A stretch of 64,000 nucleotides of DNA from assembly GCA_964605545.1 (NCBI GenBank), contig CAZSCX010000001.1, positions 16,148-80,147 of the forward strand. Reading direction: 5' to 3'. Positions 9,342-32,160 of this stretch are shown here, one piece after another (the first letter of the stretch is position 1; the number at the start of each line of letters is the position of its first letter). Made by a program: the position numbers and the translations under genes. Origin of the DNA: an uncultured Gammaproteobacteria bacterium. GTDB lineage: Bacteria; Patescibacteriota; Microgenomatia; UBA12405. The notes beneath the pieces were generated by a model, which searched no databases, was not told the DNA's origin, and was given only the letters and a program-made list of their open reading frames with translations.

Positions 9342-10607
9342 TTATTGTATGGTTAATTCCAGGAGATGGGCGGAGTTGGGAGACATATAAATAGTGGTTT
9401 GATTGTTGTTTAAAATTTCTGAAGTAGTATTGCCCAAGAATTGCGTTTTATTTAATTTGTATTGACCTGATGGCAAGTCTTTTAGTGTAATAGGAACGGT
9501 TTCTTCGTGTTTATTGTCGGGATCATAGTTTACTAGAAGAATTTGAATAGTTTGGTTGTCTTTGGTGGCTAAAGCGGAAACATGTGAACCATTACCTTCT
9601 TGACCAATGAGTTCTCCTTTAAGTTTATTTAAAAATTCAAAAGCATAATAACGAGGTTTTATGGTTCCGTCCTTTTTTATTAAGCCCCAGTGAGTGTTTG
9701 GTCCATCGATTATTTCAAAAGTAAAAACTTTATGAATATAAGGAGAGAGACGGCTAGCGGATGAGAGAAGGTGAATGGCAGAAAAAATATTATTATAAAA
9801 ATCATCATTTTCCGAAGTTGGTCCAAATTCTGAAATGATCTTTTCTATATCACGATATGAGGGGTAAGAGGCGAGGAGAGAATTGAGATTTTCGATATCA
9901 GAAAGGTATTCCGTGGGATATTTTGAGTATTTATGCCATGATATAAAGTCTAGTTTGATATGGTTATTATTGCAGTATTCGAGTAAGTATTTTATCCAAT
10001 TAGGATAGTAGCCTGAAGTGCTGGGGCCACCAATTTTATAGGGAGTATTTTGAGCTCCGGCAGAGATGGCAACAGCGGTTTTGGCATAAAAGTCCAGGTA
10101 ATTATTTTCTCCTTTATAGTGCATTTTATTATAGAGATCGGGTTCGTTTAGAACTTCATAATAAATATTGTCAATGTTTTTTTCCACAGAGTAGCGATAA
10201 ACCAGAGCAGTGACGGCTTCCTGCCAATTTGAAACATCGTCAGGATTAGTGAGACTAAAGAAAGGTTTAGCACCGGTAGCAAGAATAGTATCGACAGTAT
10301 CGTCTAACTCTTTTTGGGTATAATAATTAAATACATGGTCTATTCTGATATATTGAGGCGAGAGCTTTTGGAGATGGGAAAGAGCTGGTTTGATCATGTT
10401 GGTATGTGATTCTTCTCCACCTTGAGAAAAATTACTCCAAAAATTTTTGGGAATATTGCCGACCGAGTTTTGAGTGTGAATAATGATGTTGGCTAAAGTA
10501 GGAGTGGCATCTTTACGTATATCTTGTTGTTGCTTAATTAATAGTATAAAGACAGGGAGAAGAAGAAAAAAAATGAGAGTGATAATAATTTGTTTCTTTT
10601 TTGACAA
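9342..10607 (-). CDS. glycoside hydrolase, clan GH-A (GH5/GH39-like), membrane-anchored; TTG start
   Basis: YEVLNEPD (acid/base NEP) and ISEFGPT (nucleophile EFG). The N-terminal TM helix followed by QQDIRKDA resembles the leader motif of the adjacent cluster. Confidence 0.6.
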   Translation of the reverse strand: MSKKKQIIITLIFFLLLPVFILLIKQQQDIRKDATPTLANIIIHTQNSVGNIPKNFWSNFSQGGEESHTNMIKPALSHLQKLSPQYIRIDHVFNYYTQKELDDTVDTILATGAKPFFSLTNPDDVSNWQEAVTALVYRYSVEKNIDNIYYEVLNEPDLYNKMHYKGENNYLDFYAKTAVAISAGAQNTPYKIGGPSTSGYYPNWIKYLLEYCNNNHIKLDFISWHKYSKYPTEYLSDIENLNSLLASYPSYRDIEKIISEFGPTSENDDFYNNIFSAIHLLSSASRLSPYIHKVFTFEIIDGPNTHWGLIKKDGTIKPRYYAFEFLNKLKGELIGQEGNGSHVSALATKDNQTIQILLVNYDPDNKHEETVPITLKDLPSGQYKLNKTQFLGNTTSEILNNNQTTIYMSPNSAHLLELTIQ

Positions 10608-10632: not shown

Positions 10633-13314
10633 ATGAAAAAGTGTGCCGGATTAGCGCAAATTCCTTTGATGTTGGGATTGTTGCTAATGGCAGTGGCGAT
10701 ACCGGTAGTATCTCAATTGACAAAAAATAGTCAAGAAACAAGAAATCGAGCCCAGAGTATGCCGATAACTTATTACCGATTGATAGGTGATCAGTGTGTT
10801 GTGGCTGGAATTTTTTTAACGATTGACGAATGCCAGCAGGTAGTTAACGGGACTTGTTATGAGAATAGTAATTGTGAGAGCGGTGGAGAGGATGAGCCAA
10901 CGGCGACTCCTGATCCGATATCTAGATATTATATATGCGATTCGAAACCAGGAATGAAAAGACTTTGTAGTATTTCTTATTCTAGTGAGTCTGCTTGCCA
11001 GGCAGCTATTATAGATTCAAACACTCAAAAATGTGTTAATGATTGTAATAAAGAATGTTTAAATACATATTCTGTATGTATTGATCCGGCAATATTGGAA
11101 AAATGTCCAAATGGATCTCGAACAATGGGTTGTGAGCAATTGCTATATTCGAATGAAGTGCCAATGGGAGAGATTGCCGGAATAAATTATTTCTATGCCG
11201 ATCCGCCCAATAATTTTTTGGCTCGTTGTTTTTCTTTTGATTATGATTTTGAAGCGTCACAGGGTCGCGGAGGGGTTTTTGGAGAACTTGAGTGTTATGA
11301 GAGGTTCGGGAAACAAAATTGTTTTATCAGTAATGGTGATTGTTCAAATGTTTGTCCAAAACCAAGTACTAATACAATTACGCCAGCGCCGCCATTTGAG
11401 GCGTATAGATGTATGGAAAGTACCTGCCAGAGACAGATTTATGCAAGTATTGACGAGTGTTTGAAGGAAAATGGATTTGCCGGTTGTTTTAATGGTTGTA
11501 GTGATCAATTTTGTAGTGTCGAACAGGAATTAACCGAATATTATTATTGTGATTATAATAGTGAAAATGTAATTGAGGGAAGTTCTTTTGTTACGGGTGA
11601 GTGTGGCCATAATAGTTTTAAAAATATTTATGAATGCTATTCTCAGCATGAGAAATGTACTTTATTGAATTGTGATGATAATCCTTTGGGAATGAATGAT
11701 AATTGTCAGAAAAGTGTGATTGAGGAGGATAAAAAATTAAAATTATATTTTTGTAGTCCAAGCGGATGTCGGTGGGAAATGTTTAAAAACTGGGTAGAGT
11801 GCGGTAAATTACATGGTGTTTGTTATGATGCTTTGAATCAATGTAAATTGTATCAAAGATGTGCGGTGGCACCGCCAACTGATGATATCTATTATTTGGA
11901 TATGTCGTACACAAAATATAGTGAACAGTGTCGAAAAAGTAGTTATAAATATCTTGAAGATTGCGAACTCTATGTAAATGGTTGCGAAGAAGGAACAACA
12001 CTTGATTATTGCAAAAGACAGCTGGGAGAAAATTTTGAAAATGCAAGATGTTTTATGAATGATTCTTTGTGTGGCAGGCCAGCGCAAGAACCTTTAACAA
12101 TAGAAGTGACACCAAAATTTTCCAGTAATCCGGTGAGAGCGAAAGAAGAATTTTCTTTGGAAATTTTTGCCGATGTAATCAATGACGGTCAAACAATGCC
12201 CGATTTTTCTATTAAAGTGTGTATGACTGATAATTTAACTCGGGTATTAGACAAAGACAATACAAGTGATTGTAGTTTTACAGTAGAAGATGTCGAGGAT
12301 GAAACCCAAAAATGTTATCAGATTAGTGGTAGTTGTGTTGCAAAAAGTGAGAAGACAGTGTTGGCTAGATTATGGTTTGTGTCTGAAGCGGCCAATACAA
12401 CTGTGACTTTTTCGGTTGATTGGCCTGGATATTTTGCCGATGAATTGATTTTAAATATTGGGAATGAAGCACGAAGTTGTGATACCGGAGAGAATGGAGA
12501 TGCCAATAAAAATGGGGAGATTACAATGGATGATCATGGTATTTGGGAAAATGAATATTTTATAGGAACTTCGATGACATCTGATTTTAACTGTGATTCT
12601 AAGATTGATCTTTTGGATTTTGAAATTTGGCGATCAGGATATTTCAATCGAAATATTTCGATAACACCTTCGCCAAAACCGGTTGAATGTACAAATGGTG
12701 AATGGAAATGTTTGGATGCGACTAGAGCCCAACAATGTGTTGAGGGTTTTTGGAAAAATACAATTTGTGGTAGTGGATATAAATGTGATACTGGTGTTTG
12801 TAAAGAAGTCCAGTGTATTTTTGAAAATGAAAAATATTCAATTGGAACGAGTATTTGTACCGATACTTATTTGCCATCTGTATGTAGATCAAATGGTTTG
12901 TTTGAGGAAGGAGAATGGTGTAATAGAGGTGATTGGTGCAAGGATGGGATATGTAAAGAAATTACTTGTACCAAGGGAGATCAGGAATATAAAGTAGGTG
13001 AATCTTATTGTGGTGTTCAATCAATATTTAAATGTGGTGGTAGTGGAAGTTTTTATTCTTATGCATGTAATGGAACTTTGGTACCAGGAGAAAGATCTTG
13101 TCAGTGTGTACCTTTTGAAAATAGTCCAACGCCGACACCACCGGTAGGCACGCCGGTAACCAAATGTTATCGGAGAGATAATTATGCAGAGATGAATGTA
13201 GGGGATACTTATTGTCAGGACGATATATTTTATTTGTGTCAGAGTAACGGTATTTTGTATGAACATCAATGTATTAATGGTTGTTTAGGAGATGAATGTG
13301 CTAGTGAAATATAA
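10633..13314 (+). CDS. very Cys-rich secreted/surface protein (893 aa) with pilin-like leader and internal dockerin-like Ca-loops
   Basis: MKKCAG-LAQIPLMLGLLLMAVAIP leader and SQETRNRA motif. Carries an internal dockerin-like pair (NGDANKNGEITMDD ... DFNCDSKIDLLDFEIWR) and C-terminal C..G.W..C repeats. Confidence 0.5.
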   Translation: MKKCAGLAQIPLMLGLLLMAVAIPVVSQLTKNSQETRNRAQSMPITYYRLIGDQCVVAGIFLTIDECQQVVNGTCYENSNCESGGEDEPTATPDPISRYYICDSKPGMKRLCSISYSSESACQAAIIDSNTQKCVNDCNKECLNTYSVCIDPAILEKCPNGSRTMGCEQLLYSNEVPMGEIAGINYFYADPPNNFLARCFSFDYDFEASQGRGGVFGELECYERFGKQNCFISNGDCSNVCPKPSTNTITPAPPFEAYRCMESTCQRQIYASIDECLKENGFAGCFNGCSDQFCSVEQELTEYYYCDYNSENVIEGSSFVTGECGHNSFKNIYECYSQHEKCTLLNCDDNPLGMNDNCQKSVIEEDKKLKLYFCSPSGCRWEMFKNWVECGKLHGVCYDALNQCKLYQRCAVAPPTDDIYYLDMSYTKYSEQCRKSSYKYLEDCELYVNGCEEGTTLDYCKRQLGENFENARCFMNDSLCGRPAQEPLTIEVTPKFSSNPVRAKEEFSLEIFADVINDGQTMPDFSIKVCMTDNLTRVLDKDNTSDCSFTVEDVEDETQKCYQISGSCVAKSEKTVLARLWFVSEAANTTVTFSVDWPGYFADELILNIGNEARSCDTGENGDANKNGEITMDDHGIWENEYFIGTSMTSDFNCDSKIDLLDFEIWRSGYFNRNISITPSPKPVECTNGEWKCLDATRAQQCVEGFWKNTICGSGYKCDTGVCKEVQCIFENEKYSIGTSICTDTYLPSVCRSNGLFEEGEWCNRGDWCKDGICKEITCTKGDQEYKVGESYCGVQSIFKCGGSGSFYSYACNGTLVPGERSCQCVPFENSPTPTPPVGTPVTKCYRRDNYAEMNVGDTYCQDDIFYLCQSNGILYEHQCINGCLGDECASEI

Positions 13315-14477: not shown

Positions 14478-16304
14478 ATGATGTTTGATAAAAAGAATTT
14501 GGCTAATGTGGTAACAGCAGTGTTTTTGTTTACAGCGTTGATGGTGACTGGTTTGGCAGTAAAGAGAACTTTGGATATGAGAAATAGGGCAGCGACGACA
14601 GGGACAAAATTTTATATTGATCCGGCTAGTGTGGAATTAAAAGTGGGAGAGACAAAAGAATTTGCTGTTTATGTCGATACTTCTGATACCGGAGAAAAAG
14701 TAGCTTTTGTGGAAGGGCAGTTGTGTTATGGTCCAAAAATTAAAATTGCCAGTCAGTCGGCTGATGTTTATAAACCACAGGAAGAATATTTTAATGATGT
14801 TGACCTAATTAAGGGCAAGAGAGCGGAAGATATCGTCGATGGTACAACGGCTGGAGTGAAGTGTTTAAATTTTGCCTTAAGTTCGGCTAGTGTTACATCA
14901 GATAATTTAAAAAGCGGAGTAGTAAAAACTTTAATCGTTAGATTTACTGGGGTGGAAACAGGTAGCGAAAAAGTTAGTTTTACCCAAGATCCATTAAAGA
15001 CTTATTATAATAATAATTTAAGTGATGAGCCTGGAATTATTGCTGCTTATACCGATTCAGAAATTACGGTGGTGACACCAAGCGAGGGAAGTGAATCATT
15101 GATTACTCTTGATGGTTCAAAATTGGCAACTAAAGTTGGTGAAACCGGAGAAGTAATAGTAAAACTTGATACTTCGTCATCATCTAGAGAAGTCGATGGA
15201 TTTCAGGCGACTGTTTGTTATGGAAAGGAATATAAAATTGGAAATACCTTGGCAGATGTAACAGTGGCCAATAGTACCAGCAAGGGTTTATCGAGCATTT
15301 TCAGACCAATTACAGTTATTCCGAAGACTGATGGTAGTGGGACATGTGCAACAATAGCAATGAGAGCTTCGGCTGAAGATGGAGTTGAATTGCCTTCTGG
15401 TTCTTTTGATGTTTTGAGAATAAAACTGGAAGCTGTTATAGCTGGCAAAGGGACGGTTTATTTAGATAAAGAGCAATGTGAAGTGAGTGGACCAAGTGTG
15501 CCCGGCAAGGGAAATGCGATTACTCACGATATTGGATCGGCTGTAGCTTATGAAGTGCTTTCTGATGGAGGAAAATTTTGGCAATGTAATGAAACAACAA
15601 GAATTTGTGAGGAAATAAGTGAAACTACATGTAATTTGATTGATAACTGTATCCGTAGTGGAGATTGTCCTGTAGGTTATACTTGTCCGAGTACAACCGA
15701 TACACCGAAACCAACACCAACAGATACACCGGAGGAAACTGGTTTGATATTTAATTTTAAAATGACTTTTCAAGGTTTAATGTCAAATGCCTCGGAATGT
15801 GGTGAGAAATGGAATAATTTAAAAATTAAATTAGTTGACAGTAAAGGTAAAGAAAGTCCTTTGATGGATGTAGCTATTTCACCGGAAGATGCTTTGTCTA
15901 TGGCTGTAGAACCGATGGTTTTTAAAGGAAAAGTATATTTGGGTGAATATGTGCCGGAAGGAGATGTTTTTGCTTTGATGCGGGGGCCAATTCATATTAC
16001 CGATAAATATGGTATGGATGCACAAAACGGTGAATACAATATTTATTTGGGTAAACTTAATGGAATGACGGAAAATTTGGAAACGACAAAATTATTTGAT
16101 TTTACAAAATATGCTTTGAGAGGCGGTGATGTCGATGCCAATGATATGCTCAATGGGGCAGATTATACAAAGATTAAAGATAGTTTAAGTTGTACGGAAA
16201 GTACTTGTTTAAATTCTGATATTAATGGTGATTGTGTAGTTAATGCAGCCGATACTACATTTTTTATAGATAATATTAAAATACGCAATGGCAAATTATA
16301 CTAA
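14478..16304 (+). CDS. surface protein: N-anchor, two cohesin-like domains, eight-Cys module, C-terminal dockerin
   Basis: Leader ...VKRTLDMRNRAATTG and cohesin-like strands (KTLIVRFTGVETGSEKVSF). C-terminal dockerin pair GDVDANDMLNGADYTKIK / DINGDCVVNAADTTFFI. Confidence 0.5.
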   Translation: MMFDKKNLANVVTAVFLFTALMVTGLAVKRTLDMRNRAATTGTKFYIDPASVELKVGETKEFAVYVDTSDTGEKVAFVEGQLCYGPKIKIASQSADVYKPQEEYFNDVDLIKGKRAEDIVDGTTAGVKCLNFALSSASVTSDNLKSGVVKTLIVRFTGVETGSEKVSFTQDPLKTYYNNNLSDEPGIIAAYTDSEITVVTPSEGSESLITLDGSKLATKVGETGEVIVKLDTSSSSREVDGFQATVCYGKEYKIGNTLADVTVANSTSKGLSSIFRPITVIPKTDGSGTCATIAMRASAEDGVELPSGSFDVLRIKLEAVIAGKGTVYLDKEQCEVSGPSVPGKGNAITHDIGSAVAYEVLSDGGKFWQCNETTRICEEISETTCNLIDNCIRSGDCPVGYTCPSTTDTPKPTPTDTPEETGLIFNFKMTFQGLMSNASECGEKWNNLKIKLVDSKGKESPLMDVAISPEDALSMAVEPMVFKGKVYLGEYVPEGDVFALMRGPIHITDKYGMDAQNGEYNIYLGKLNGMTENLETTKLFDFTKYALRGGDVDANDMLNGADYTKIKDSLSCTESTCLNSDINGDCVVNAADTTFFIDNIKIRNGKLY

Positions 16305-16737
16305 GGCTTTTACTTTGGTGGAGTTGTTGGTAGCGATGACAATTATTATGGTACTGACAATTGTGGCGGTGGTAAATTATGGTAGTGTCCAAAAAAATGC
16401 CAGAGATTCAAAAAGAAAGGCTGATTTAGAAAAAGTGAGGGTGGCGTTGGAAATGTATAAACAGGATCATGATGGATGTTATCCGCCAAATACCAATACT
16501 TTGGATGACGAGGGTTATTTAGATATTGTGCCAAGAACTGATCCGAAAGGACAGCCGTATTGTTATATATTTGCTGGATCTGCTTGTGGGTCACCAGCAG
16601 TAGGAAATACGTCTTATTCTTTGTATACAAGTATGGAAAATGAGAAAAATGAATCTTCATCTTTTGATGCTTTTACTTGTATTGGAGATGGTGGTCTTAC
16701 ATTGGAAAATACAAATTATGGAGTTAGTAATCCTTAA
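16288..16737 (+). CDS. type IV pilin / T2SS pseudopilin (PulG/GspG-like)
   Basis: Class III signal: basic leader then A/G-FTLVELLVAMTIIMVL. Followed by a GspG-like SVQKNARDSKRKADLEKVRVALEMY. Confidence 0.75.
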   Translation: MANYTKAFTLVELLVAMTIIMVLTIVAVVNYGSVQKNARDSKRKADLEKVRVALEMYKQDHDGCYPPNTNTLDDEGYLDIVPRTDPKGQPYCYIFAGSACGSPAVGNTSYSLYTSMENEKNESSSFDAFTCIGDGGLTLENTNYGVSNP

Positions 16738-16740
16738 AAT

Positions 16741-17352
16741 ATGAAAAAAAATAAAGGCTTGGCTCAAATTCCATTGATAATTGGTTTGATGGTAGTGGCG
16801 GTGGCTATTCCAATGATCAAAAATATATCAATGAAAAAAGAAAAGACTAAAAATATTGTTTCTGAGGAAAAGGTCGTCGAAAAAAAGATGAAAAAAGTTG
16901 AGGCAAAAATGTTTTTGGAACCAAAGGATATAAATTTAAAAGTTGGAGAAAAAAAGAAAATTAAGATAATAGTTGATACAAGTGAGGGAAAAAGGAAGGT
17001 TGATATTGCCAGGGCAGTGTTGTGTTGGAGTGGGGGATTGGCAATAGGTGATATTGAGAAAGATATTGTTTTAGATAAATCTTTTTTTGATGGTTTTGTT
17101 TTTAAAAATCCTGTTAAGGTGGAAGGGTTCGATTGTATTGATATAGTTGCTAATTCACAAAAGAGAACTAATGAATTGAATTCCGGTAAAATGACTTTGG
17201 CTGAAGTTGTATTTGTGGCTACAGAAAAAATGGAAGGAGGGGTGTTTACTTTTGATTCTGTTTTAAGTGAAGTTTCTGGTCCTGCTAATGAAAATGGCGA
17301 TTATGGGATTCAATTAGGGGAATTTGAAAAATTTATTTATCAGGTTAAATAG
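16741..17352 (+). CDS. pilin-like-leader protein with single cohesin-like domain
   Basis: MKKNKG-LAQIPLIIGLMVVAVAIP leader and a cohesin-like body (MTLAEVVFVATEKMEGGVFTFD). Confidence 0.45.
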   Translation: MKKNKGLAQIPLIIGLMVVAVAIPMIKNISMKKEKTKNIVSEEKVVEKKMKKVEAKMFLEPKDINLKVGEKKKIKIIVDTSEGKRKVDIARAVLCWSGGLAIGDIEKDIVLDKSFFDGFVFKNPVKVEGFDCIDIVANSQKRTNELNSGKMTLAEVVFVATEKMEGGVFTFDSVLSEVSGPANENGDYGIQLGEFEKFIYQVK

Positions 17353-17355
17353 GCC

Positions 17356-19848
17356 GTGAAGAAGTGTCTATTTCTTTTTTTGTTTTTAGGTTTATTTTTG
17401 GCACCGTCAGTATTGGCGGAAGAGAATTACGATGGTTATTTAATTAAGTATAAGAGTGGAAAAATTGAGAAAAGTGCTACTAAACCGATGAATATAATGA
17501 GCGAGGGAGAGGAAAGTGATATTAAGTTTATTCAACCGAATTATATTTATGAAACGTGTGAAATTAGCGAGAACGATAAATATTGGTATTTAAAAAATAC
17601 CGGCCAAATATTTCAAGAAAAAAGTGGGGTTGGTATAAAAGGGAGGTCAGGGGTGGATTTAGGAAAAGAGGCAGCCGATGAACTAACAAGAAATGAGAGT
17701 AAACAAGACATAATTGTGGCCGTCTTGGATTTGGGGTTGGATTACAATGACACGATATTTACTGGGAAATTATGGAATGGAGAGAATTGTAAAAATGAGT
17801 TGGGGGAAACGATGGGAGGATGTAAAAATGGTTATGATTTTGTAAATAACGATAAAGATCCTTTGCCAAATAGTAGTGAAGATCATGGTACTCATGTGGC
17901 GGGGATAGTGGCATCAATTGCACCGAATGCGAAATTAATGATATTGAGAGTAGGGGCTGGGGGAACGATGCCGGCAGAAGCTATAAGCCGGGCAATTGAT
18001 TTTGCCAAAGTCAATGGGGCGAAGGTTATTAATGCTAGTTTTGCCTCTTCAAAAGGATCTGATGGAAAATATCCAGATATTTTTGATTTATTGATGTACG
18101 ATTCAATTAAAAATTTTGATGGACTTTTCATCAATGCGGCAGGAAATGAAAATACCAATATCGATACAGGAGTGACCGGCGGGAGACCGTTTCCGGCATC
18201 GTTAAAATATGGAATGGGAGGTTTTAACGAGCCATTGAAAAATATTTTTGTAGTTTCGGCAACGAATTATTATGATGATATTACTTATTTTTCCAATTTT
18301 GGTAAAGATACAGTAGATATCGCAGCAATGGGAGCAGGTATTTATGGAGTGAGTAATAACGGTGGTAGGGTTTATTATCAGGGGACTTCGATGGCGACAC
18401 CGATGGTTTCCGGAGTGGCGGCTTATTTGTTAGGCTTGAGACCAAGTATGAGTGTGGCCGAATTAATTTCTTTGATTTCCGGAAGCGGAATTAAGGCTGA
18501 GGGAGTGAAGGGGATGGTGTTAAGTGGAAGGAGATTAAATTTGGAAACGGCAGTGAGAAAAATGAAAAATATGGAATGGGATAGGGAAAGCAAGGGAAGT
18601 GAAGGGGTAAAAAGATTGAGTGACGGAAAAATAGGAGGAGGAATTTTTATGGAAATAAACAGTAAATATTTACCGGAATTTTTGTATCTCTATTTATCAG
18701 ATATGTCCAATTCGTTGCGATTGACAAGATGCAGTGAAATGAAATGCGAGAGTGTTAGTGAGACAAAGGAATTGTTAAAAGGAGGATTAAATCCAATTGC
18801 GTTTTCTTTGACAGCTGATGATCGGCCAATAATTTTGTCAGGGGGAACTTTTAGTTTATTAAAAATTTGTAAAGATAAAGATTGTATTGAATACAAAGAT
18901 GTGGGAAGTGGTAATTATGGAGTTAATGTATCAATTAATGGAGAAATAGATGTCGATAGCAAGGGTAGAATAGTCTGGACTTTTTATACGGCGGATAGAA
19001 ACTGGGTGATTTTGAATAGATGTGATGATGCGCAATGCACTAGTTACCAATCTTGGAAGACGGCTTCAATGATATCAAATGATTCAGAAGCGGCGTTGGA
19101 TTTAAAAATAGATAAAAGTGATCGAATATTTTTGGCATACAACGAACAAATTTCGGTTAAAAAATTAATTAAGTGTGATGATAATTTAAGCGATAGTTGT
19201 GATTTGTTGGGCACAGATAATCAATCAATTTATGGCTATGGAAATGCTTTGGCGATAGATAAAGATGACAATCTTTATTGGCTTTTACCGGCTAGTGGTG
19301 GTCTTAAGTTAAGTAGGTGTTTAAATGGTGATTGCCAGATAATAAATTCATTGATATCGGTGTCGGTTGATAGTGGGTCTTTGTTTATGAGTAAATTAAA
19401 AATGGTAATGAATGTTGGCGGAGTACCAATGATAACGATAGGTGATGATGGTGATAAATATGGAGTAAAAATAATTAAATGTAAAGACAAAAATTGTAGT
19501 CAGAGTGAGACGGTGATAATTGACAATCAATATGGTGTAGGGGAAAGTATGAGAATAAAAAGTGGGGCGGGAGGAATGGGTGGAGTGGCTTATTTGGATA
19601 CATTGTCGGCTGATTTGAAATATCATAGTTTTCTGAATTATTTTCCAGTGAAGTGTAGTGAGAATTATTTTGGTAAAAATCAAGGTGATTATAATTGCGA
19701 TAATTTAATTACTGGGGGAGATTATATTGTTTGGAGGAGAGAATTTTTGGATAAAAAAATTGGAGAAAAATTTGAGTCAGATGGAGATGGAGATGGTAGA
19801 TCTAGTCTGAGTGATTATTCGTTATGGAGAGAAGAGTATTTGAAATAA
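17356..19848 (+). CDS. subtilisin-like serine peptidase (S8) with C-x4-C repeat region and C-terminal dockerin-like domain; GTG start
   Basis: Catalytic triad contexts VAVLDLGLD, HGTHVAGIVAS and GTSMATPMVSG. Six [KR]C..x..C[ST/Q] repeats. C-terminus GDYNCDNLITGGDYIVWRREFLDK...DGDGDGRSSLSDYSLWREEYLK. Confidence 0.8.
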   Translation: MKKCLFLFLFLGLFLAPSVLAEENYDGYLIKYKSGKIEKSATKPMNIMSEGEESDIKFIQPNYIYETCEISENDKYWYLKNTGQIFQEKSGVGIKGRSGVDLGKEAADELTRNESKQDIIVAVLDLGLDYNDTIFTGKLWNGENCKNELGETMGGCKNGYDFVNNDKDPLPNSSEDHGTHVAGIVASIAPNAKLMILRVGAGGTMPAEAISRAIDFAKVNGAKVINASFASSKGSDGKYPDIFDLLMYDSIKNFDGLFINAAGNENTNIDTGVTGGRPFPASLKYGMGGFNEPLKNIFVVSATNYYDDITYFSNFGKDTVDIAAMGAGIYGVSNNGGRVYYQGTSMATPMVSGVAAYLLGLRPSMSVAELISLISGSGIKAEGVKGMVLSGRRLNLETAVRKMKNMEWDRESKGSEGVKRLSDGKIGGGIFMEINSKYLPEFLYLYLSDMSNSLRLTRCSEMKCESVSETKELLKGGLNPIAFSLTADDRPIILSGGTFSLLKICKDKDCIEYKDVGSGNYGVNVSINGEIDVDSKGRIVWTFYTADRNWVILNRCDDAQCTSYQSWKTASMISNDSEAALDLKIDKSDRIFLAYNEQISVKKLIKCDDNLSDSCDLLGTDNQSIYGYGNALAIDKDDNLYWLLPASGGLKLSRCLNGDCQIINSLISVSVDSGSLFMSKLKMVMNVGGVPMITIGDDGDKYGVKIIKCKDKNCSQSETVIIDNQYGVGESMRIKSGAGGMGGVAYLDTLSADLKYHSFLNYFPVKCSENYFGKNQGDYNCDNLITGGDYIVWRREFLDKKIGEKFESDGDGDGRSSLSDYSLWREEYLK

Positions 19849-19868: not shown

Positions 19869-21605
19869 ATGAGGAATAATTTGAAAAGAATTTTGTTTAG
19901 TATGATTTTGATGATCGGATTGGTAGTGACAGGAGTGTTGGTACAAAGTACACAGGAGACGAGGCGTAGAGCGGCAGAAGGAGAAGTTTCATGTGGGGAA
20001 CAAGATGGAGTAGTTAGAATGGCGGGTGAGACTTGGTGTCAAGAGGGATCTCCTCAGATGGTTAAAAAATGTTTGAATGATAGTACTGTTTCTGTAAGTG
20101 AATTTGAATGTGGTCCTGGTGATGAATGTGTTAATGGAAAATGTGAATTTATTAAGGAAGGCTGTACGACTCCTGAATATGGTGGAAAGTTTTTTTCTCC
20201 TGGTCAAATAGTATGTGTAAGTGAAACAAGCTACAGGGAATGTCAGGCTAATAATCAATATAGTGAGATTAAATCCTGTGGAGAGAATCAGATATGTGAT
20301 TTTGGTATGTCTGGTTATCATTGTGTAAATAAAGATACGACTTGTATAGATTATGAAATGTCGAATCAATATAATACGGTTTATTATGCACCGGGTGAGG
20401 TATTGTGTAAAAGTGATAATAGTTATGTAAGATGTTTAGACGATAGTACTTTTTCTGCGGAATTAAAATGTGATGAAGGGTCACTTTGTTATCGAGGTAA
20501 GGGGTGTGTCAGAAATGGTGGATGTATAAGGGAAGGAAGATTGCCAGCTTTTGATGGAGATACATATTGTGATGATAATGATTTGAGTATTATAAAAACT
20601 TGCCTAGATAGTAATTGGTTAATTGATAAATGTTCCGAGGGAGAGGGTTGTGATAATCGAGATAATAATGAAAATCCGACGGCATTTAAGTGTGTAAAAA
20701 AAGTTGATAAATGTACTTGGAATGAGGCGGATTATAGTGTTGGAGAGAGAAGATGTGGAGAGGACAATCCTAAAGAAATATTTACTTGTACTGATTTTGG
20801 TTGGGATTTTGGAATGATTTATGATGGTAGTAATGTAACTTGCGAAACAAAAAAAGAATCATTTACTAATGGCAAGTGTAAATTATGTAAAAAGCCGTAT
20901 GTTTGTGATACAAGTGCTAAGAATGTTGGGGCGAGATTTTTAATAGATTTGGTGAGTGACGAGAATACTAATTTGGATGTGGGGACGACGATAGTTTTTG
21001 AGATTGGAGTGGACAGTACAGGACGGTCGATTACGGGAATTGATGCAGATCTGGATTTTGATGCAAGTATTCTTAAAATATTGAAAGTAGATAATTTAAT
21101 TAATTTATTAACAATGAAGGCGCCTTACGATAGTGGTGTTCTTTCTTTTTATAATGGTAACCCTGAAACTATTTATTCAAGAGTTTTTAAGAATGAAAAG
21201 ATTGCTAGAATTACTTTTGAAGTTTTGAAGAAAGTAAATAATTGGTCGATTAAATTTAAGTGTGTTAATAGTAGTATGACAGATTCGAATCTTTTGAATG
21301 CTGAAAATGGGGTGGTGACTGATTTAATTTCTTGTGGTGATAATGAGTGGTTTTATGTTGATGAAACGGGAAATAAACTGAACCAGAATCCTTTTGGATG
21401 TGATGAAAGTGCATTGAGACAAAATGATCCTAAATTTAGGGGAGATTATAATTGTGATGGGGATTTGACCGGGGGGGACTATATTGTTTGGAGGGGTGAG
21501 TTTATTGATAAAAAGTATGAGTTTGGAGTACAGTCTGATGGAAATTGTGACGGGAAAAGTAGTTTGATCGATTACTCGAGATGGAGAGAAGAGTATTTGA
21601 AATAG
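19869..21605 (+). CDS. Cys-rich surface protein with cohesin-like domain and C-terminal dockerin-like domain
   Basis: Leader ...VQSTQETRRRAAEGE. The cohesin-like segment (KIARITFEVLKK...SMTDSNLLNAENGVVTDLISCGDN) is near-identical in motif to 32782's. C-terminus GDYNCDGDLTGGDYIVWRGEFIDK...DGNCDGKSSLIDYSRWREEYLK. Confidence 0.5.
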   Translation: MRNNLKRILFSMILMIGLVVTGVLVQSTQETRRRAAEGEVSCGEQDGVVRMAGETWCQEGSPQMVKKCLNDSTVSVSEFECGPGDECVNGKCEFIKEGCTTPEYGGKFFSPGQIVCVSETSYRECQANNQYSEIKSCGENQICDFGMSGYHCVNKDTTCIDYEMSNQYNTVYYAPGEVLCKSDNSYVRCLDDSTFSAELKCDEGSLCYRGKGCVRNGGCIREGRLPAFDGDTYCDDNDLSIIKTCLDSNWLIDKCSEGEGCDNRDNNENPTAFKCVKKVDKCTWNEADYSVGERRCGEDNPKEIFTCTDFGWDFGMIYDGSNVTCETKKESFTNGKCKLCKKPYVCDTSAKNVGARFLIDLVSDENTNLDVGTTIVFEIGVDSTGRSITGIDADLDFDASILKILKVDNLINLLTMKAPYDSGVLSFYNGNPETIYSRVFKNEKIARITFEVLKKVNNWSIKFKCVNSSMTDSNLLNAENGVVTDLISCGDNEWFYVDETGNKLNQNPFGCDESALRQNDPKFRGDYNCDGDLTGGDYIVWRGEFIDKKYEFGVQSDGNCDGKSSLIDYSRWREEYLK

Positions 21606-23241: not shown

Positions 23242-24006
23242 ATGAAAAAAAGGATTAGTGGTGCAGTACAAATACCTATTTTGGTTGGTTTATTAATAGT
23301 AGCGGCGGCTTTACCGATAGTTTCAAAATTGACACAAAAAAGTCAGGATGTGCGTAATTTGGCGGCCGAGGGAGAGGTAACGGCAACTCCGACATGTAAT
23401 CCAAATGCTTGTAGTCAGACTACCGGATGTACGATGAATAGATGTTCTCCTGGTGATGCTATCCAAACAAATTGTACTTTGTGTGCTCCAATTCCAACGG
23501 CTGATCCGAATTATACGGCGGGATGTAATAATAATTGTTCTAACTGTGCGGCAACGGATACACCAATTCCGACAAACACTCCGACTAATACACCGATTCC
23601 AACTAATACTCTAGTACCGACAATGGCTTGTACTATTAGTCAAAAATTAATTGATGATGGAGTGACAATTAAGGCATACAAGGTTAATGCCGATAAATCA
23701 GTTGGAAATGAAGTTACATTTAATGTTTCTACTGGTCAATTGGGTATTGATGATAGTTTTAATAGTAATATGGTTCTTTTTGAAGTGACGATTAGTAAAA
23801 AAAGTGGAGTAAAAAATGTAGGATTGCTTTTTAAAAGTAAAGATGGAACCATTAATGCTTCAGCTTGGACTAGCGGAAGTGTGTCTGGAACTGGTTTAAG
23901 TTTTTATAGTAGTCCGACTACAAGTGGGGATTTGGTAGCCAAGTTTCCGTTACAGTTAAGTTTTACCAAAAGTGTTCAAGTTGATATTTCAGTCCAATAT
24001 TATTAA
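23242..24006 (+). CDS. pilin-like-leader Cys-rich protein with Thr/Pro linker
   Basis: MKKRISG-AVQIPILVGLLIVAAALP leader and SQDVRNLAAEGE. A TDTPIPTNTPTNTPIPTNT linker precedes a C-terminal beta domain. There is no dockerin. Confidence 0.4.
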   Translation: MKKRISGAVQIPILVGLLIVAAALPIVSKLTQKSQDVRNLAAEGEVTATPTCNPNACSQTTGCTMNRCSPGDAIQTNCTLCAPIPTADPNYTAGCNNNCSNCAATDTPIPTNTPTNTPIPTNTLVPTMACTISQKLIDDGVTIKAYKVNADKSVGNEVTFNVSTGQLGIDDSFNSNMVLFEVTISKKSGVKNVGLLFKSKDGTINASAWTSGSVSGTGLSFYSSPTTSGDLVAKFPLQLSFTKSVQVDISVQYY

Positions 24007-24015
24007 TAGTATAAA

Positions 24016-25311
24016 ATGAAAAAAAATAGTGTCTGGGCAATTTTAGCATTGGCGGTGGTGGCGGTGGCTTTGCCAATGGCAGTGGAATTGACGGGGAGGT
24101 CAGCGGAATTAAGAAGGAAAGCAGTTGATTTTATGGAAAATTGTAGTTGTACTAATGCGACTTCGGCAGAATGTACAAGTTTGAAGGCTAATGGGATTGC
24201 TTACAAACCGTGTAATGCTTGTAACGAATTTTGTGGAGATCCTATCGCATGTAATGAGGGGGATCCGGTGGATTGGAGATTGCCGGCTTTTAAATGTAAT
24301 ACTCCGGGACATGAAGTACAAGTTTCTTGGGCTTGGTATTGTGATGATCCTGATTATTGGGACACTGAATGTCCCCTGGATACGGTTGATGTTGATAAAT
24401 GCCAATGTTGTAAGTTAGATGTTTATGTTGCGGGTAAAACTTTTCATTGTACAACGTCAGTGTGGGTTCCGGGGGCTACTTTAACACCAACAGAGGTGCC
24501 TACTCAGGTACCAACGGAAATACCAACATCGATACCGACTAATACAATAGCGCCGACAGCAACTAATACGCCAACAGAAACTTTGACTCCGACAATAACG
24601 CCGATACCGCCGGTGTGTGAATGTACTACTAGTGATTATTGTTATGATGCTATTGCTGATTTTGGTGGAAAACAGTGGAATCCGTGTGTGGCATGTGAAT
24701 CGATGTGTGTGGCCAAAGATAAGGGAGAGAATTTGGCTCCGGAATCATTGGCTAAAAAATATGATTGTCCTAGCTTGGGGATACAGTTGAATTTAGGTGA
24801 ATATTGTCAAAATCCGATAAATTTTGAACATTGTGGTTTAGATATTGATCCGTGTCTGTGTTGCAATTTAACTGGTATTACCGGTTATTTTGGGAATGTA
24901 GGGGAGTGTACTTCGGCAATATGTAAATATATTCCAACACCGACTTTTACACCAACGCCGTTTCCATATTGTACGCCGGTGCCGTGTCCGATAGGAGGTA
25001 AATTTTCTTGTCCTGTTGATAAAGCTCCTTGTCTTGGGGGTTGTGGAATGGAGTGTTTGACCCCGACACCAACCGAAACACCTGCGGAATGTCCGGTGAG
25101 ATGTGAAATGGAAGATGAAAATTATGAGGGAATGGATAAATGGGGTGGAGATTATAATTGCGATGGAAGTTTGACCGGTGGAGATTTTATGATTTGGCGA
25201 ATAGAATTTTTGGATAAAATTGTGGGTGATTTCTTAAAATCAGATGGAAATTGTGATGGTAAGGTAAGTTTAGCTGATTATTCAAAATGGAGAGAAGAGT
25301 ATCTAAAATGA
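24016..25311 (+). CDS. Cys-rich surface protein with TP-rich linkers and C-terminal dockerin-like domain
   Basis: Leader ...VELTGRSAELRRKAVD. C-terminus GDYNCDGSLTGGDFMIWRIEFLDK...DGNCDGKVSLADYSKWREEYLK. Confidence 0.45.
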   Translation: MKKNSVWAILALAVVAVALPMAVELTGRSAELRRKAVDFMENCSCTNATSAECTSLKANGIAYKPCNACNEFCGDPIACNEGDPVDWRLPAFKCNTPGHEVQVSWAWYCDDPDYWDTECPLDTVDVDKCQCCKLDVYVAGKTFHCTTSVWVPGATLTPTEVPTQVPTEIPTSIPTNTIAPTATNTPTETLTPTITPIPPVCECTTSDYCYDAIADFGGKQWNPCVACESMCVAKDKGENLAPESLAKKYDCPSLGIQLNLGEYCQNPINFEHCGLDIDPCLCCNLTGITGYFGNVGECTSAICKYIPTPTFTPTPFPYCTPVPCPIGGKFSCPVDKAPCLGGCGMECLTPTPTETPAECPVRCEMEDENYEGMDKWGGDYNCDGSLTGGDFMIWRIEFLDKIVGDFLKSDGNCDGKVSLADYSKWREEYLK

Positions 25312-26783
25312 AAAAGTTGGTATTACTGGTAGTGTTTGTATTTTTTTTAAGTTTTGGTAAGGTGATTTTAGCGGAAACTTGTAGCCCAACATGGGTGTCT
25401 TTGGATAAGATATACACTGGGGGAATTTTTTTGGATATAGGGAAAGATAATAAACCTATGGTTCTTTATACAGAGTATATAAAAACAGGATCAGTGAATG
25501 GATCGCGTTTTTTAAAATGTACATCGAATGATTGCAAAAGTTTTAATGATATTAATTTTGATGGTCTTTTCCAGTGGTGGAGTGGAGGGGCAGGAAATTT
25601 TTCTGATGGAAGCGTTGCTTTTGTAATGGTTACTAATAATATGGATATGTATTTTGTGAAATGTAGTGATGATAAGTGTTCCAATTATACAAAGATTTTG
25701 TTCAAAAAAGATATTGTTATGGATAGAGATAATACTAATTATGAAATTAAAGCTAATTCTCCTAGTCAAGTAGTAGTTGATGGAAATGATTTACCATTTT
25801 TTTATTTTACACAGAGTTTTGTTTATGGAAGTGGAACCCAAGGAGATCCGTATATCGATTTGTATTTAGTGCGATGTAGTAAGAAGGATTGTAGTGAATA
25901 CAAGGTGAATAAGATTGATAAGATTTTAAATGTACCCAATGATTCTGTTACAGGTACAATAGATAGTGAAAATAAACTGATTATTTTTCATACCATTGGT
26001 GATCAGCAATTGATTTTGAATTATAATGGGACAAAAACATTAATCGATGAGGCTGCGTATCAATGTACCAATAGAAGCGAATTGGGTTTTTTATCGATGT
26101 ATTTGGGAAATGATGGTAATCCGGTTTTAAATTATATTAAGAGGGTTGGAAGTGGTGATGGTTGTACTAATAAATATATTACGGTTTTTTGTAAAAATAA
26201 AACTTGTACAGAAAAAAATGTAATAGATACCGTAAAAGGTATTAATATGAAAAAAGGGAGAGAAGGATATCCGGTTTATGAATATGTAGATAAATACAAC
26301 AGCGGAGTTATTGTTTGTAAAAATGCCGATTGTTCGGAAAAAATTCAAAGATCGGTTTTGACCGATTGTAATCCGGATTTTAATCTTTGTCCGCGTTTTG
26401 TAGATTTTGAATTAGATAATGAATTCAAACCGGTGTTTTTAATTAACCGATGGGTTTCTGGGTTGGGTCATTATGTACTGGATATTTACCGATGCTGTAC
26501 AGTCGATTGTGGGACAACATTTGAACCTCTTAATTGGTATGGGACATGTAAAAACGTTGTGGATGAAGCAAGAGGGTGTACCAAGTGTGAAAGTGATAGT
26601 TATCAGGGAATGAATCGTTGGGGTGGGGATTATAACTGCAGCGGAGATTTGACGACAGGTGATTATATTGTTTGGAGAGATGAATTTTTGAAAAAAGGAA
26701 CAGAGAGAAATGCCGATGGTGATTGTGACGGAAAAACGAGTTTGTCAGATTATTCAAAGTGGAGAGAGGAATATTTGAAGTAA
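25287..26783 (+). CDS. secreted C-x4-C repeat protein with C-terminal dockerin-like domain (paralog A)
   Basis: Sec-type signal ...VILA-ETCSP. Repeats FLKCTSNDCKSF, YFVKCSDDKCSNY, YLVRCSKKDCSEY, VFCKNKTCTEK, VCKNADCSEK. C-terminus GDYNCSGDLTTGDYIVWRDEFLKK...DGDCDGKTSLSDYSKWREEYLK. Confidence 0.5.
   Translation: MERRVSKMKKLVLLVVFVFFLSFGKVILAETCSPTWVSLDKIYTGGIFLDIGKDNKPMVLYTEYIKTGSVNGSRFLKCTSNDCKSFNDINFDGLFQWWSGGAGNFSDGSVAFVMVTNNMDMYFVKCSDDKCSNYTKILFKKDIVMDRDNTNYEIKANSPSQVVVDGNDLPFFYFTQSFVYGSGTQGDPYIDLYLVRCSKKDCSEYKVNKIDKILNVPNDSVTGTIDSENKLIIFHTIGDQQLILNYNGTKTLIDEAAYQCTNRSELGFLSMYLGNDGNPVLNYIKRVGSGDGCTNKYITVFCKNKTCTEKNVIDTVKGINMKKGREGYPVYEYVDKYNSGVIVCKNADCSEKIQRSVLTDCNPDFNLCPRFVDFELDNEFKPVFLINRWVSGLGHYVLDIYRCCTVDCGTTFEPLNWYGTCKNVVDEARGCTKCESDSYQGMNRWGGDYNCSGDLTTGDYIVWRDEFLKKGTERNADGDCDGKTSLSDYSKWREEYLK
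26502..26567. repeat. 66-nt stretch identical to 28017..28082 (also 26179..26230 = 27697..27748), marking a recent tandem duplication or gene conversion
   Basis: Direct comparison of the two paralog genes; the shared stretch is gtcgattgtgggacaacatttgaacctcttaattggtatgggacatgtaaaaacgttgtggatgaa. Confidence 0.8.
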
Positions 26784-26810: not shown

Positions 26811-28298
26811 ATGAGGAAGTTATTGTTTTTATTATGTTTAGGAATTTTTTTGGGTACAGGTGGTGTGGTGTTGGCAGAAACATGTAGTCCGACAGAGGTG
26901 TCTTTGAATAGGGAAAAAACTGGAGGAATTTTTTTGAATATTGGTAAAGATAATAAACCTGTGGTTCTTTATACGGAATATAAGACGAGTATGGTTACAG
27001 AATCGAGTTTTTTAAAATGTACGACTGACGATTGTAGTGATTTTGGGGAAGTTGATTTTTCTTCGATATTTCCTTTAGAAAATGGGGGAGTAGGTGTGTT
27101 TAGCGATGGAAGCGTGGCTTTTATGATGGTGAGTGAGGGTGAAAACAATAATATGTATTTTGTAAAATGTAGCGATAATAAATGTACTAGTTATACAAAA
27201 ACTTTATTTAAAAGTGATTTTGTTAAAGATAGTAATTTGAATATTTTTCGTAATTCTCCAGCCCAAGTTTTTATTGACAAGAACGATTTGCCTAATTTTT
27301 ATTTTCGGCAAAGTTTTACCGATGGAACTAGAATGGATCAATATTTGGATATATATCTAGTAAGATGTAGTAAAAAGGATTGTAGTGAATACAAAGTAAA
27401 TAAGATAGATAAAGTAATAGCTGAGGCAGCTATTGACGGTTTTTGGGGGCAAACTTTTGTGGTAGATAATGATGACAAAACTGTTTTGGAGTATTTGATG
27501 TTGGAATACGAAACAGGAGATTTGCAATTGGTTTTAAATTATGATGGAACAAAAACGATAATTGATGAAGCCGAGAATAGGTGCTACAACAGAAGTGAAT
27601 TGATGTTGCCGTCGATGTATTTAGGAAACGATGGTAATCCTGTTTTAAATTATATGAAAAGAGTTGGGAGTGCCGATAGTTGCACAACCAAATACATTAC
27701 GGTTTTTTGTAAAAATAAAACTTGTACAGAAAAAAATGTAATAGATACGGTTAAGGGTTTTAAAATGAGAAAAGGAAGGGAGGGTTATCCGGTTTATGAA
27801 TATTTGGATGGAGGAGACAGGGGGGTTATAGTTTGTAAAAATGCCGATTGTTCGGAAAAAACACAAAAGGCAATTTTGACCGGATGTAATCCTAATTTAA
27901 ATGTTACGTGCCCAGGTTTTGTTGATTTTAAATTGGACAATGAATATAAACCGGTTTGGTTGATAAATAGGGTGATTTCTAGTAAGAATATTTTGTCAAT
28001 TTATCGATGTTGTACGGTCGATTGTGGGACAACATTTGAACCTCTTAATTGGTATGGGACATGTAAAAACGTTGTGGATGAAACAAGAGGGTGTACTAAG
28101 TGTGAAAGTGATAATTATCAAGGAATTAATCGTTGGGGAGGGGATTATAATTGTAGTGGGGATTTAACAGCCGGGGATTATATTGTTTGGCGAGATGAAT
28201 TTTTTAAAAAGGGAACGGAGAGGGAGGCGGATGGGGATTGTGATGGTAAAACGAGTCTTTCCGATTATTCAAAATGGAGAGAGGAGTATCTTAAATAA
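26811..28298 (+). CDS. secreted C-x4-C repeat protein with C-terminal dockerin-like domain (paralog B, tandem duplicate)
   Basis: Colinear with 25287..26783 and shares perfect 52-nt and 66-nt nucleotide stretches with it. Confidence 0.5.
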   Translation: MRKLLFLLCLGIFLGTGGVVLAETCSPTEVSLNREKTGGIFLNIGKDNKPVVLYTEYKTSMVTESSFLKCTTDDCSDFGEVDFSSIFPLENGGVGVFSDGSVAFMMVSEGENNNMYFVKCSDNKCTSYTKTLFKSDFVKDSNLNIFRNSPAQVFIDKNDLPNFYFRQSFTDGTRMDQYLDIYLVRCSKKDCSEYKVNKIDKVIAEAAIDGFWGQTFVVDNDDKTVLEYLMLEYETGDLQLVLNYDGTKTIIDEAENRCYNRSELMLPSMYLGNDGNPVLNYMKRVGSADSCTTKYITVFCKNKTCTEKNVIDTVKGFKMRKGREGYPVYEYLDGGDRGVIVCKNADCSEKTQKAILTGCNPNLNVTCPGFVDFKLDNEYKPVWLINRVISSKNILSIYRCCTVDCGTTFEPLNWYGTCKNVVDETRGCTKCESDNYQGINRWGGDYNCSGDLTAGDYIVWRDEFFKKGTEREADGDCDGKTSLSDYSKWREEYLK

Positions 28299-30825: not shown

Positions 30826-32160
30826 ATGACAAATAATAAAAATAAACTTTTTGTTTTATTAATAATATTGGCAGTATCTATTTTTGGGTCGGTAATGCTG
30901 ACAAGACAAACACAAGAGCTAAGAAGGAAGGCAGCTGATGGTTATATTCAATCTTTTGAACCAGTTTCAATAACTGGTATGAAAGTGGGAGGGACAGCGT
31001 CGGTAACTGTTTTAGCAGAAACACCTTTAGGTTTTAAATCGGCGACTATTCTGATTTGTTACCCTGATTATTTGAAGGAACTAACAAAGGATGATATTAA
31101 ATTATCGGATTATTTTACAATTGATTTACCGCCGATTCGAAGAGTTGATTTGGGTTATAGTGGAAAAATTTGTTCGGTAATAGAGGCGATGGTGAGTATA
31201 GATGATGCAACTAAAACTGGAGCGCCAGCAGGAATATCTCAGGTGGCGAAGCTTACTTTTACCGGAAATAAGGTTGGAACTGGTGGTAAGATAGAAGCAA
31301 TTATTGGTCCTGTTTCCGGTAGAGAATATGGTAAAACGACCGATAAGAATTTTAGATCATTGGTTTCCGGTGATTTTACAGACGGACAAGATAAAGTCTT
31401 TAGCACTGTTGGGTCTGTTGATATTAGTGTTGAAGGTGATAAGAAATATGTTAGAGGAGATTGTGATTTTAGTACTGGTAAATATGAATGTACAGAGAGT
31501 GCTAATGGGACTATGGATTTGGCTACTTGTGAGACAGATACAAATTGTTATGTTAAAGGTGATGATTATGTTTTGAAGTTTAGAGTTATTTTTCCAGGTG
31601 TTTGGCCGCAAAATAAATTTATTGATGGTTATGAAAAAGTTAGTTTATTGGTTGAATCAGCAGTTGGTACGACTTGGTTGGGAGATGTAACAATGACAAA
31701 GGTGGCAAAAGAAGAGACAACCGATATAAAAGACGGTGATATTCAATATCAGGTGTATCAGGCGTCGGTGCCATTGAAAGGTTTTAATTACAACAAGGAT
31801 TTAGCGGTAACTATAAAAGGAGTAAAGCATTTAGGAATGAGGTTTGGCGAAGATAATCAAAAAGGTTGCTATAGATCGATGATAGGAAAAATTGGTTCGA
31901 CTAATGCTTTAACAAAAGATGAGACTACAACACCTTTGTTTAACTTCATTAAAACTCCATTACCGGGCGGTGATGTTGATAATAATGATATTGTGAATGC
32001 GGCCGATTATTCTCAGGTTAAGTCAAAAATGTTGACTTGTGATAATGCCAAGTGTGGGGAGGATATTAATGGTGATGGAATTATAAATAGTACTGATGCC
32101 AGTTATATTAATTTAACAGTCTCTGACAAATGTGGAGACTGGTGGACTACAGGAGAATAA
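30826..32160 (+). CDS. surface protein with cohesin-like domain and C-terminal dockerin (DVDNND type)
   Basis: Leader ...LTRQTQELRRKAADG and cohesin-like AKLTFTGNKVGTGGKIEAII. C-terminus GGDVDNNDIVNAADYSQVKSK / DINGDGIINSTDASYIN. Confidence 0.5.
   Translation: MTNNKNKLFVLLIILAVSIFGSVMLTRQTQELRRKAADGYIQSFEPVSITGMKVGGTASVTVLAETPLGFKSATILICYPDYLKELTKDDIKLSDYFTIDLPPIRRVDLGYSGKICSVIEAMVSIDDATKTGAPAGISQVAKLTFTGNKVGTGGKIEAIIGPVSGREYGKTTDKNFRSLVSGDFTDGQDKVFSTVGSVDISVEGDKKYVRGDCDFSTGKYECTESANGTMDLATCETDTNCYVKGDDYVLKFRVIFPGVWPQNKFIDGYEKVSLLVESAVGTTWLGDVTMTKVAKEETTDIKDGDIQYQVYQASVPLKGFNYNKDLAVTIKGVKHLGMRFGEDNQKGCYRSMIGKIGSTNALTKDETTTPLFNFIKTPLPGGDVDNNDIVNAADYSQVKSKMLTCDNAKCGEDINGDGIINSTDASYINLTVSDKCGDWWTTGE

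Follow-up and report, generated by a model that had tools for sequence, protein, structure and literature searches.

A predicted secreted S8 protease of a Microgenomates bacterium joins a cysteine-pair beta-propeller to a probable divergent dockerin

The window analysed here, a stretch of 64,000 nucleotides (nt) from contig CAZSCX010000001.1, contains an S8 protease gene (17356–19848) whose product is predicted to be a serine protease of the subtilisin family, secreted by a Microgenomates bacterium, with proteolysis as its predicted activity. We consider it about 60% probable that this protease carries a cysteine-pair propeller as a targeting module and a divergent dockerin, by which it would be docked on a cohesin of the same locus at the cell surface. 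As an enzyme, the protease is nothing out of the ordinary. What is new is the combination of domains, not the kind of protein, as most of the parts are familiar: the enzyme is known, the fold is a known one that occurs here in an uncurated and very common repeat family, and the docking module is of a known type in divergent form. Genes are named below by their first position in the window, and the coordinates of the features are collected in Table 1.

The gene for the protein of 830 amino acids (aa) was also called independently on a Logan contig. Its orthologue (829 aa, 97.8% identical) was found, with the gene order kept, in two other assemblies, L002 and L003/GCA_964559645.1. The N-terminus reads as a Sec signal peptide, in which a K-rich n-region gives way to a hydrophobic core and then to V-L-A, a cleavage-type motif. 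Neither Pfam I9 nor PF22148, which most S8 relatives carry, matched the putative pro-segment behind it. Meanwhile, the catalytic domain was recognised by Pfam PF00082 with E = 7e-35 (121.2 bits against a cutoff of 21.8; aa 117–374). The triad and the oxyanion residue stand in canonical motifs in the order Asp-His-Ser, namely VAVLD125, H177GTHVAG, AAGN264 (oxyanion) and GTS345MATP, confirming the S8 subtilase with an intact triad that the original prediction, made by reading the DNA without database searches, had placed here.

The nearest S8 relatives are of the thermitase/subtilisin type, share at most 39% identity with the window protein and nearly all align to the catalytic domain alone. Among the 120 best of them, the alignment never exceeded 63% of the query and the majority covered the S8 domain only. 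The scan of the genome contigs with the S8 protein as the query gave no relative, and the S8 domain was absent from all 150 best relatives of the propeller. The protein thus shares with known subtilases (MEROPS/Pfam Peptidase_S8) the catalytic domain, the D-H-S triad with the oxyanion Asn, secretion and modular C-terminal extensions, whereas the combination of S8, cysteine-pair propeller and dockerin-like tail was met solely in the species-level lineage of the window. The recruitment of a protease through a dockerin had been proposed to be unusual, a view that the examples found do not support. Pfam Dockerin_1 is present in three of the S8 relatives (P0183, P0242 and P0256), dockerin-bearing peptidases have been documented in Ruminococcus flavefaciens (PMC2930009), and an S8 peptidase module sits in a cohesin-bearing scaffoldin of Acetivibrio cellulolyticus (PMC3413522).

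The comparison of the strains revealed 18 differences in the protease, 11 of which, one indel included, fall inside a patch of 26 residues in the catalytic domain. Unlike this patch, the propeller is nearly invariant between the strains (340/341 identical). The patch may reflect either local hypervariability or a tract of recombination.

The C-terminal half of the protein is built of cysteine-pair repeats. Six pairs are present (459/464, 505/510, 556/561, 607/615, 655/660 and 709/714), forming C-x4-C motifs and, in one blade, C-x7-C, and a seventh repeat, lacking both cysteines, follows them at approximately aa 727–768. All six motifs quoted in the original prediction were located in the translation. 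Their spacing is 46–54 aa, instead of the 50–60 aa first estimated, and the K or R described in front of the first cysteine stands in five of the six motifs but not in the second one (K-I-C). A profile hidden Markov model (HMM) of 87 outside modules matched exactly three of the open reading frames (ORFs) of the window: the S8 protease (5e-34, 109.9 bits, envelope aa 422–770), 26811 (5e-22) and 25287 (1e-17). At the level of sequence, the match of the repeat region is far beyond chance. As the outside modules pick out these three proteins and no other, the proposed sharing of the repeat with the paralogs 25287 and 26811 is correct.

These two paralogs stand in tandem in the window, while the related assemblies carry a single gene of 507 aa (L002 15353–16876 / L003 15508–17031) that is approximately 70% identical to each of them. 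Either the window strain has duplicated the gene or the other strains have lost a copy, and the divergence would have been fast.

The structure of aa 420–768 was predicted with AlphaFold2 from an alignment of 12 sequences. The 26 strands of the model (mean predicted local distance difference test, pLDDT, 80.6; predicted template modelling score, pTM, 0.85) fall into seven groups of four. The first cysteine of each repeat closes the third strand, and the second lies in the loop ahead of the fourth strand. The Foldseek search of the PDB with this model gave 307 matches at E ≤ 1e-3, and propellers dominate the best 50 of the 307. The first 22 entries are all Photorhabdus PLL/PHL lectins (E 2e-11 to 9e-9, TM-score 0.70–0.75, approximately 13% identity), followed by propeller glycosidases, sialidases and WD40-like propellers. 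The window propeller also has the size and the blade number of the PLL family, that is, seven four-strand blades in approximately 350 aa. The modelling indicates that the repeat region is a seven-bladed beta-propeller, one of the two geometries originally suggested. The other one, a beta-solenoid, or else a new fold, has nothing more in its favour than the regular spacing of the repeats. We rejected the solenoid because the model, with its seven four-strand groups and its pTM of 0.85, and the propeller-dominated fold search both give a propeller, and regard such a fold as scarcely credible. The profile searches of the repeat region in Pfam and NCBIfam gave no match to PKD or P-domain, the well-known domains that had been named as possible identities, and that reading was rejected as well.

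The repeat had also been taken for a novel one. The word-indexed search with the repeat region found only a 90%-identical fragment and a distant protein, P0002, in which the repeat occurs seven times in its textbook form ("G.YtSlalD..g.PVISYYD...gdLKLaHC.D..C"). The exhaustive HMMER (phmmer) search of 1.84 billion cluster representatives (clusters at 50% identity) yielded 1,079 relatives at E ≤ 1e-3 and 112 at E ≤ 1e-10. With so many clusters and an ordinary seven-bladed fold near the PLL lectins, the repeat is not novel. The consensus of the family is a unit of approximately 50 aa, 'G.Y.S.A.G.DG.PVISYYD...DLKVAHC.N..C'. The C-x4-C period in the relatives is likewise approximately 50 aa, and the commonest run is of seven repeats (87 runs), followed by runs of six (59 runs) and of thirteen or fourteen (tandem modules). 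The members come from Gracilibacteria, Nitrospiria, Anaerolineales metagenome-assembled genomes (MAGs) and many metagenomes, and two of them, P0009 and P0013, have the cysteine-pair propeller together with a canonical dockerin. Source names were obtained for 9 of the 20 relatives looked up: eight are "hypothetical protein" and one, a Gracilibacteria protein of 5,999 aa, is named for a LamG-like domain.

The window propeller shares with this family the period of approximately 50 aa, the cysteine pair and the strong match (E = 5e-34) to the outside modules. It differs by the fusion to a protease and by its lower regularity: it is 24–31% identical to typical members, with one C-x7-C blade and one blade without cysteines. 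It is, judged by sequence, a divergent member of a large uncurated repeat family. The original prediction that the repeat cannot be assigned to a known family holds, as Pfam and NCBIfam gave no repeat family above cutoff for the window protein and 20 family members. DUF1936, BNR_4 and Vgb_lyase were considered as the identity of the repeat and dropped, their matches being partial and below threshold. The sequence and profile searches of the PDB with the repeat returned only noise (designed TIM barrels and Csc2), and literature searches for the repeat motif and for DUF1936 found nothing relevant. Many family members (P0010–P0151) end the module or the protein with 'C-[LIV]-[PN]-x-[FWY]-x-R-R', for example ...HCSNVLCSPYFRRR and ...KCANQFCLNNWMRR. 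This C-terminus, which is lacking in the window proteins, may serve as a closure strand or else as a signal for sorting.

Of the 1,544 repeats in which the two cysteines were counted, 1,472 have both, 63 have neither and 9 have a single one. Thus, both cysteines of a blade are gained and lost together. Because the pair is present or absent as a unit across the repeats, we infer one disulfide per blade, which would staple the hairpin and rigidify the extracellular propeller. Metal binding by the C-x4-C pairs in the manner of a zinc knuckle, without disulfides, is very improbable. It is prompted by matches to Pfam DUF1936, presumably a small cysteine-containing archaeal domain, that recur in several family members. 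However, these are summed partial matches covering only positions ~17–30 of 34, with no single stretch passing. Moreover, each blade has just two cysteines, the proteins are secreted, and strict pairwise co-occurrence is what a disulfide predicts.

The nearest solved folds to the propeller are PLL lectins and the propeller exists without the enzyme in 25287 and 26811, so that glycan binding is possible. In the protease, the propeller would serve as a targeting or ligand-binding module, and we consider it to be probably ligand-binding. NCBIfam 'beta propeller lectin' (NF052348) and its BP39L/CV39L relatives form the only family recurrent among the members, with 3 of 12 matching; the best match, that of P0035, reaches 27 bits (E = 2e-6), where the cutoff is 200 bits. 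These matches are in line with the fold search, though they fall far short of membership. The propeller resembles the PLL lectins of Photorhabdus (PLL, PLL2-5 and PHL) in its length of approximately 350 aa, its seven four-stranded blades and the TM-scores of 0.70–0.75. The PLL lectins, for their part, occur as free-standing proteins in an insect pathogen that is Gram-negative. They bind sugars between neighbouring blades, and the disulfides described for PLL/PHL link monomers (PMC6943638). As the cysteine pair lies within each blade here, the stapled hairpin sets the cysteine-pair family apart from them.

Several points weigh against a lectin role: seven-bladed propellers serve many functions, the window propeller is only 13% identical to PLL, and it matched no lectin model in NCBIfam (neither at E ≤ 1 nor at E ≤ 0.01). 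The propeller may instead bind proteins, gate the substrate or act as a structural element or spacer, for example by restricting the S8 active site or by binding host-surface proteins. The glycosidases, sialidases and WD40-like propellers further down the Foldseek results fit such a role, as does the occurrence of the family in multi-domain surface proteins of giant size (P0003, for example, has 5,999 aa). We hold this to be a serious possibility, though the less probable one, given that 22 top fold matches in a row are PLL lectins of equal size and blade number and that weak beta_propeller_lectin matches recur in the family.

The last 54 residues of the protease (GDYNCDNLITGGDYIVWRREFLDKKIGEKFESDGDGDGRSSLSDYSLWREEYLK) form the third part, which the original prediction had called a dockerin. 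The two loops, DYNCDNLITGGD and DGDGDGRSSLSD, have the 12-residue dockerin pattern of D1, N/D3, D5 and D12, with a predicted helix after each loop. The tail pattern 'GDYNCDN..GGDYIVWRREFLDK..DGDGDGRSSLSDYSLWREEYLK' is common to nine ORFs between 13292 and 30822. When eight of the tails were aligned by hhalign with five dockerins, three of which score above the Pfam cutoff (30826, 33471 and P0009), the probability was 85.8% with E = 5.4e-6 over 49 columns, both loops included. Owing to this match and to the cohesin genes in the cluster, the tail is best called a divergent dockerin, which we consider probable.

In spite of this agreement, part of the evidence speaks against a standard dockerin. 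The isolated tail scored 17.0 bits (E = 0.007) with Pfam Dockerin_1 (PF00404), below the cutoff of 22.9, and the full-length protease gave no Dockerin_1 match at E ≤ 1. The eight-tail profile pulled approximately ten solved dockerins from the PDB at E 0.4–3, none of them individually significant. The AlphaFold2 model of the tail alone has a loop-H11-26-loop-H42-52 secondary structure but, at pLDDT 48, is not good enough for a fold search. The word-indexed tail search gave only three matches, too few to be informative, and found the tail type almost exclusively in the window lineage. The tail could therefore be a lineage-specific Ca-binding (EF-hand-like) stabilising or sorting tag for other machinery, or a plain folding unit, which does not bind cohesin. 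The extreme C-terminus, WREEYLK, is strictly kept in nine proteins, and the invariant W17-R18 and W48-R49 are without counterpart in the invariant columns of the canonical dockerins aligned. Against such a tag, the dockerins of one genome are generally near-identical to each other in cellulosome-producing bacteria. Since the hhalign match spans both loops, these fit the dockerin Ca-loop pattern, and five to seven cohesin modules are encoded in the same cluster, we regard a tag that does not bind cohesin as unlikely and retain the divergent dockerin.

Cohesins are encoded in the same organism as the tail: they were found by Pfam in 19869 and 32782 and by jackhmmer in 14478 and 16741. The candidate partner 16741, which gave no Pfam match, ends 3 nt before the start of the S8 protease gene. 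The downstream gene 19869 combines a cohesin with the same dockerin-like tail, and 32782 is predicted to be a sortase-anchored cohesin. Two cohesin-like modules were found in 14478 by local jackhmmer and a weak cohesin match in 32132, and the locus of the cluster is conserved in the related strains. Two further dockerin flavours occur beside the 'DYNCDG...WREEYLK' tail, namely 'GGDVDxND...DINGD' on 14478–16304 and 30826–32160, and 'DYNNDGxIN', twice, on 33471–34142. The proteins with the former, 14478 and 30826, also carry cohesin-like modules. As there are three flavours, the sequences suggest a hierarchical arrangement of anchor, adaptor and cargo.

According to our model, the tail of the protease would bind one of the cohesins of this 23-kb cluster, that of 16741, 14478, 19869 or the LPXTG-anchored 32782. 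By this docking, the protease would be kept at the cell surface together with the propeller-only paralogs and the remaining proteins with the tail, in an assembly that would be cellulosome-like but non-cellulolytic. The locus resembles known cohesin–dockerin assemblies in that many secreted proteins bear one conserved C-terminal tail of duplicated Ca-loop and helix, cohesin proteins are encoded in the same locus, one of them LPXTG-anchored, and some proteins bear both cohesin and dockerin, like adaptor scaffoldins. In contrast, the cargo here consists of a protease, FG-GAP and cysteine-pair propellers and cysteine-rich proteins, and the host is a bacterium of the candidate phyla radiation (CPR). 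The tail is divergent, with its W-R pairs and a loop cysteine. Among the cluster genes screened, Pfam revealed no carbohydrate-active enzymes, bar the opposite-strand GH39-like gene upstream. For dockerins in Microgenomates/Patescibacteria, the literature searched yielded nothing relevant.

Table 1. Features of the S8 protease and of the surrounding cluster (window positions)
Feature	Position	Strand	Basis or details
S8 protease gene	17356..19848	+	GTG start, 830 aa
Signal peptide, aa 1-21, MKKCLFLFLFLGLFLAPSVLA followed by EE	17356..17418	+	Read by eye from the translation
Putative short pro-segment, aa 22-116, 'DGYLIKYKSG...IKFIQPNYIYE'	17419..17703	+	Position and resemblance to subtilase propeptides
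Peptidase S8 catalytic domain, aa 117-374	17704..18477	+	Pfam PF00082
Variable patch, S8 aa 234-259	18055-18132		Compared with L002 7491-9980
Seven-bladed beta-propeller (predicted), aa 425-770	18628..19665	+	AlphaFold2, Foldseek, outside-module HMM
Divergent dockerin-like tail, aa 777-830	19684..19845	+	Two 12-residue D-x-[ND]-x-D...D loops, predicted helix after each
Upstream gene, 203 aa: hydrophobic N-terminal segment and one cohesin-like module, candidate partner	16741..17352	+	jackhmmer from the 32782 cohesin, E=4e-14
Downstream gene: Cys-rich region, cohesin (aa 362-492) and same dockerin-like tail	19869..21605	+	Pfam Cohesin 25.2 bits vs cutoff 24.1; jackhmmer E=1e-65
Predicted cell-wall-anchored cohesin: signal peptide, cohesin, S/T linker, LPKTG and transmembrane segment	32782..33474	+	Pfam Cohesin 39.9 bits, Gram_pos_anchor 29.6 bits, above cutoffs
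Paralog, 498 aa: signal peptide, same-family propeller and same tail	25287..26783	+	HMM E=1e-17
Paralog, 495 aa, 68% identical to 25287	26811..28298	+	BLASTP; HMM E=5e-22
GH39-like glycoside hydrolase, just upstream of the cluster	9342-10607	-	
ORFs with the N-terminal pattern: 10633, 13292, 14478, 19869, 21633, 23242, 24016, 28342, 30826; partly 16741	10633-32160		

Other genes of the cluster were noted as well. Cysteine-rich secreted proteins without a Pfam match are encoded at 10633–13314, 23242–25311 and 28342–30822, with 73 cysteines in 893 aa in 10633, 38 in 431 aa in 24016 and 87 in 826 aa in 28342; the Pfam searches of 23242, 24016 and 28342 gave no match. The dockerin-like tail of the S8 protease is also found at the end of two of these proteins, 24016 and 28342. 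Inside the cluster lies a type IV pilin-like gene (16288–16737; N_methyl motif, T2SSG-like), which overlaps the end of 14478 by 17 nt. Nine to ten of the cluster proteins have a common N-terminal pattern: a hydrophobic segment of approximately 20 aa, then 3–7 residues, then Q-[ED]-x-R-[RN]-[RK]-A-[AQ]. Four of these proteins start with G-[LA]-x-Q-[IL]-P. Classical signal peptides, which end in VLA before E, take the place of the pattern in the S8 protease and in both propeller paralogs. The common pattern may represent a leader, an anchor or a processing motif that has so far gone unrecognised.

The window contains the housekeeping genes topA, rpsB, tsf, frr, rseP, dnaX, cysS and gyrBA and is chromosomal. 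Its GyrA is 74–81% identical to those of Candidatus Woesebacteria and Shapirobacteria MAGs; for this reason, the source is assigned to the Microgenomates group of the CPR. The GC skew is very strong and uniformly positive over window positions 1–56000 (+0.2 to +0.49 in 2-kb windows), with 32–39% GC and nearly all genes on the + strand. The title of a report on a complete Microgenomates genome mentions an unusual strand composition disparity (PMC7143001).

A broader reading, speculative and on balance rather doubtful, is that the whole + strand cluster of approximately 10633–34142 encodes a cellulosome-like surface assembly whose use would not be the digestion of plant cell walls, in a CPR bacterium that is probably attached to a host. 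The anchored cohesin and the cohesin/dockerin adaptors would then display the protease, the lectin-like propellers, the FG-GAP propeller and the cysteine-rich proteins in order to attach to the envelope of a host cell and process it, and the cysteine-pair propeller would represent a new and widespread family of extracellular modules that bind glycans or surfaces.

What makes the finding interesting is mainly the unnamed propeller family, together with the cohesin–dockerin surface locus of a CPR bacterium. Defining the cysteine-pair repeat family, with its more than 1,000 clusters at 50% identity, giant CPR proteins included, would provide a domain annotation for mostly hypothetical proteins. 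Little is known of the way in which CPR/Patescibacteria attach to other cells and feed on them. If our reading is true, the locus would be a concrete and testable set of surface parts, comprising an anchored cohesin, about a dozen dockerin-like cargoes, a protease and lectin-like propellers.

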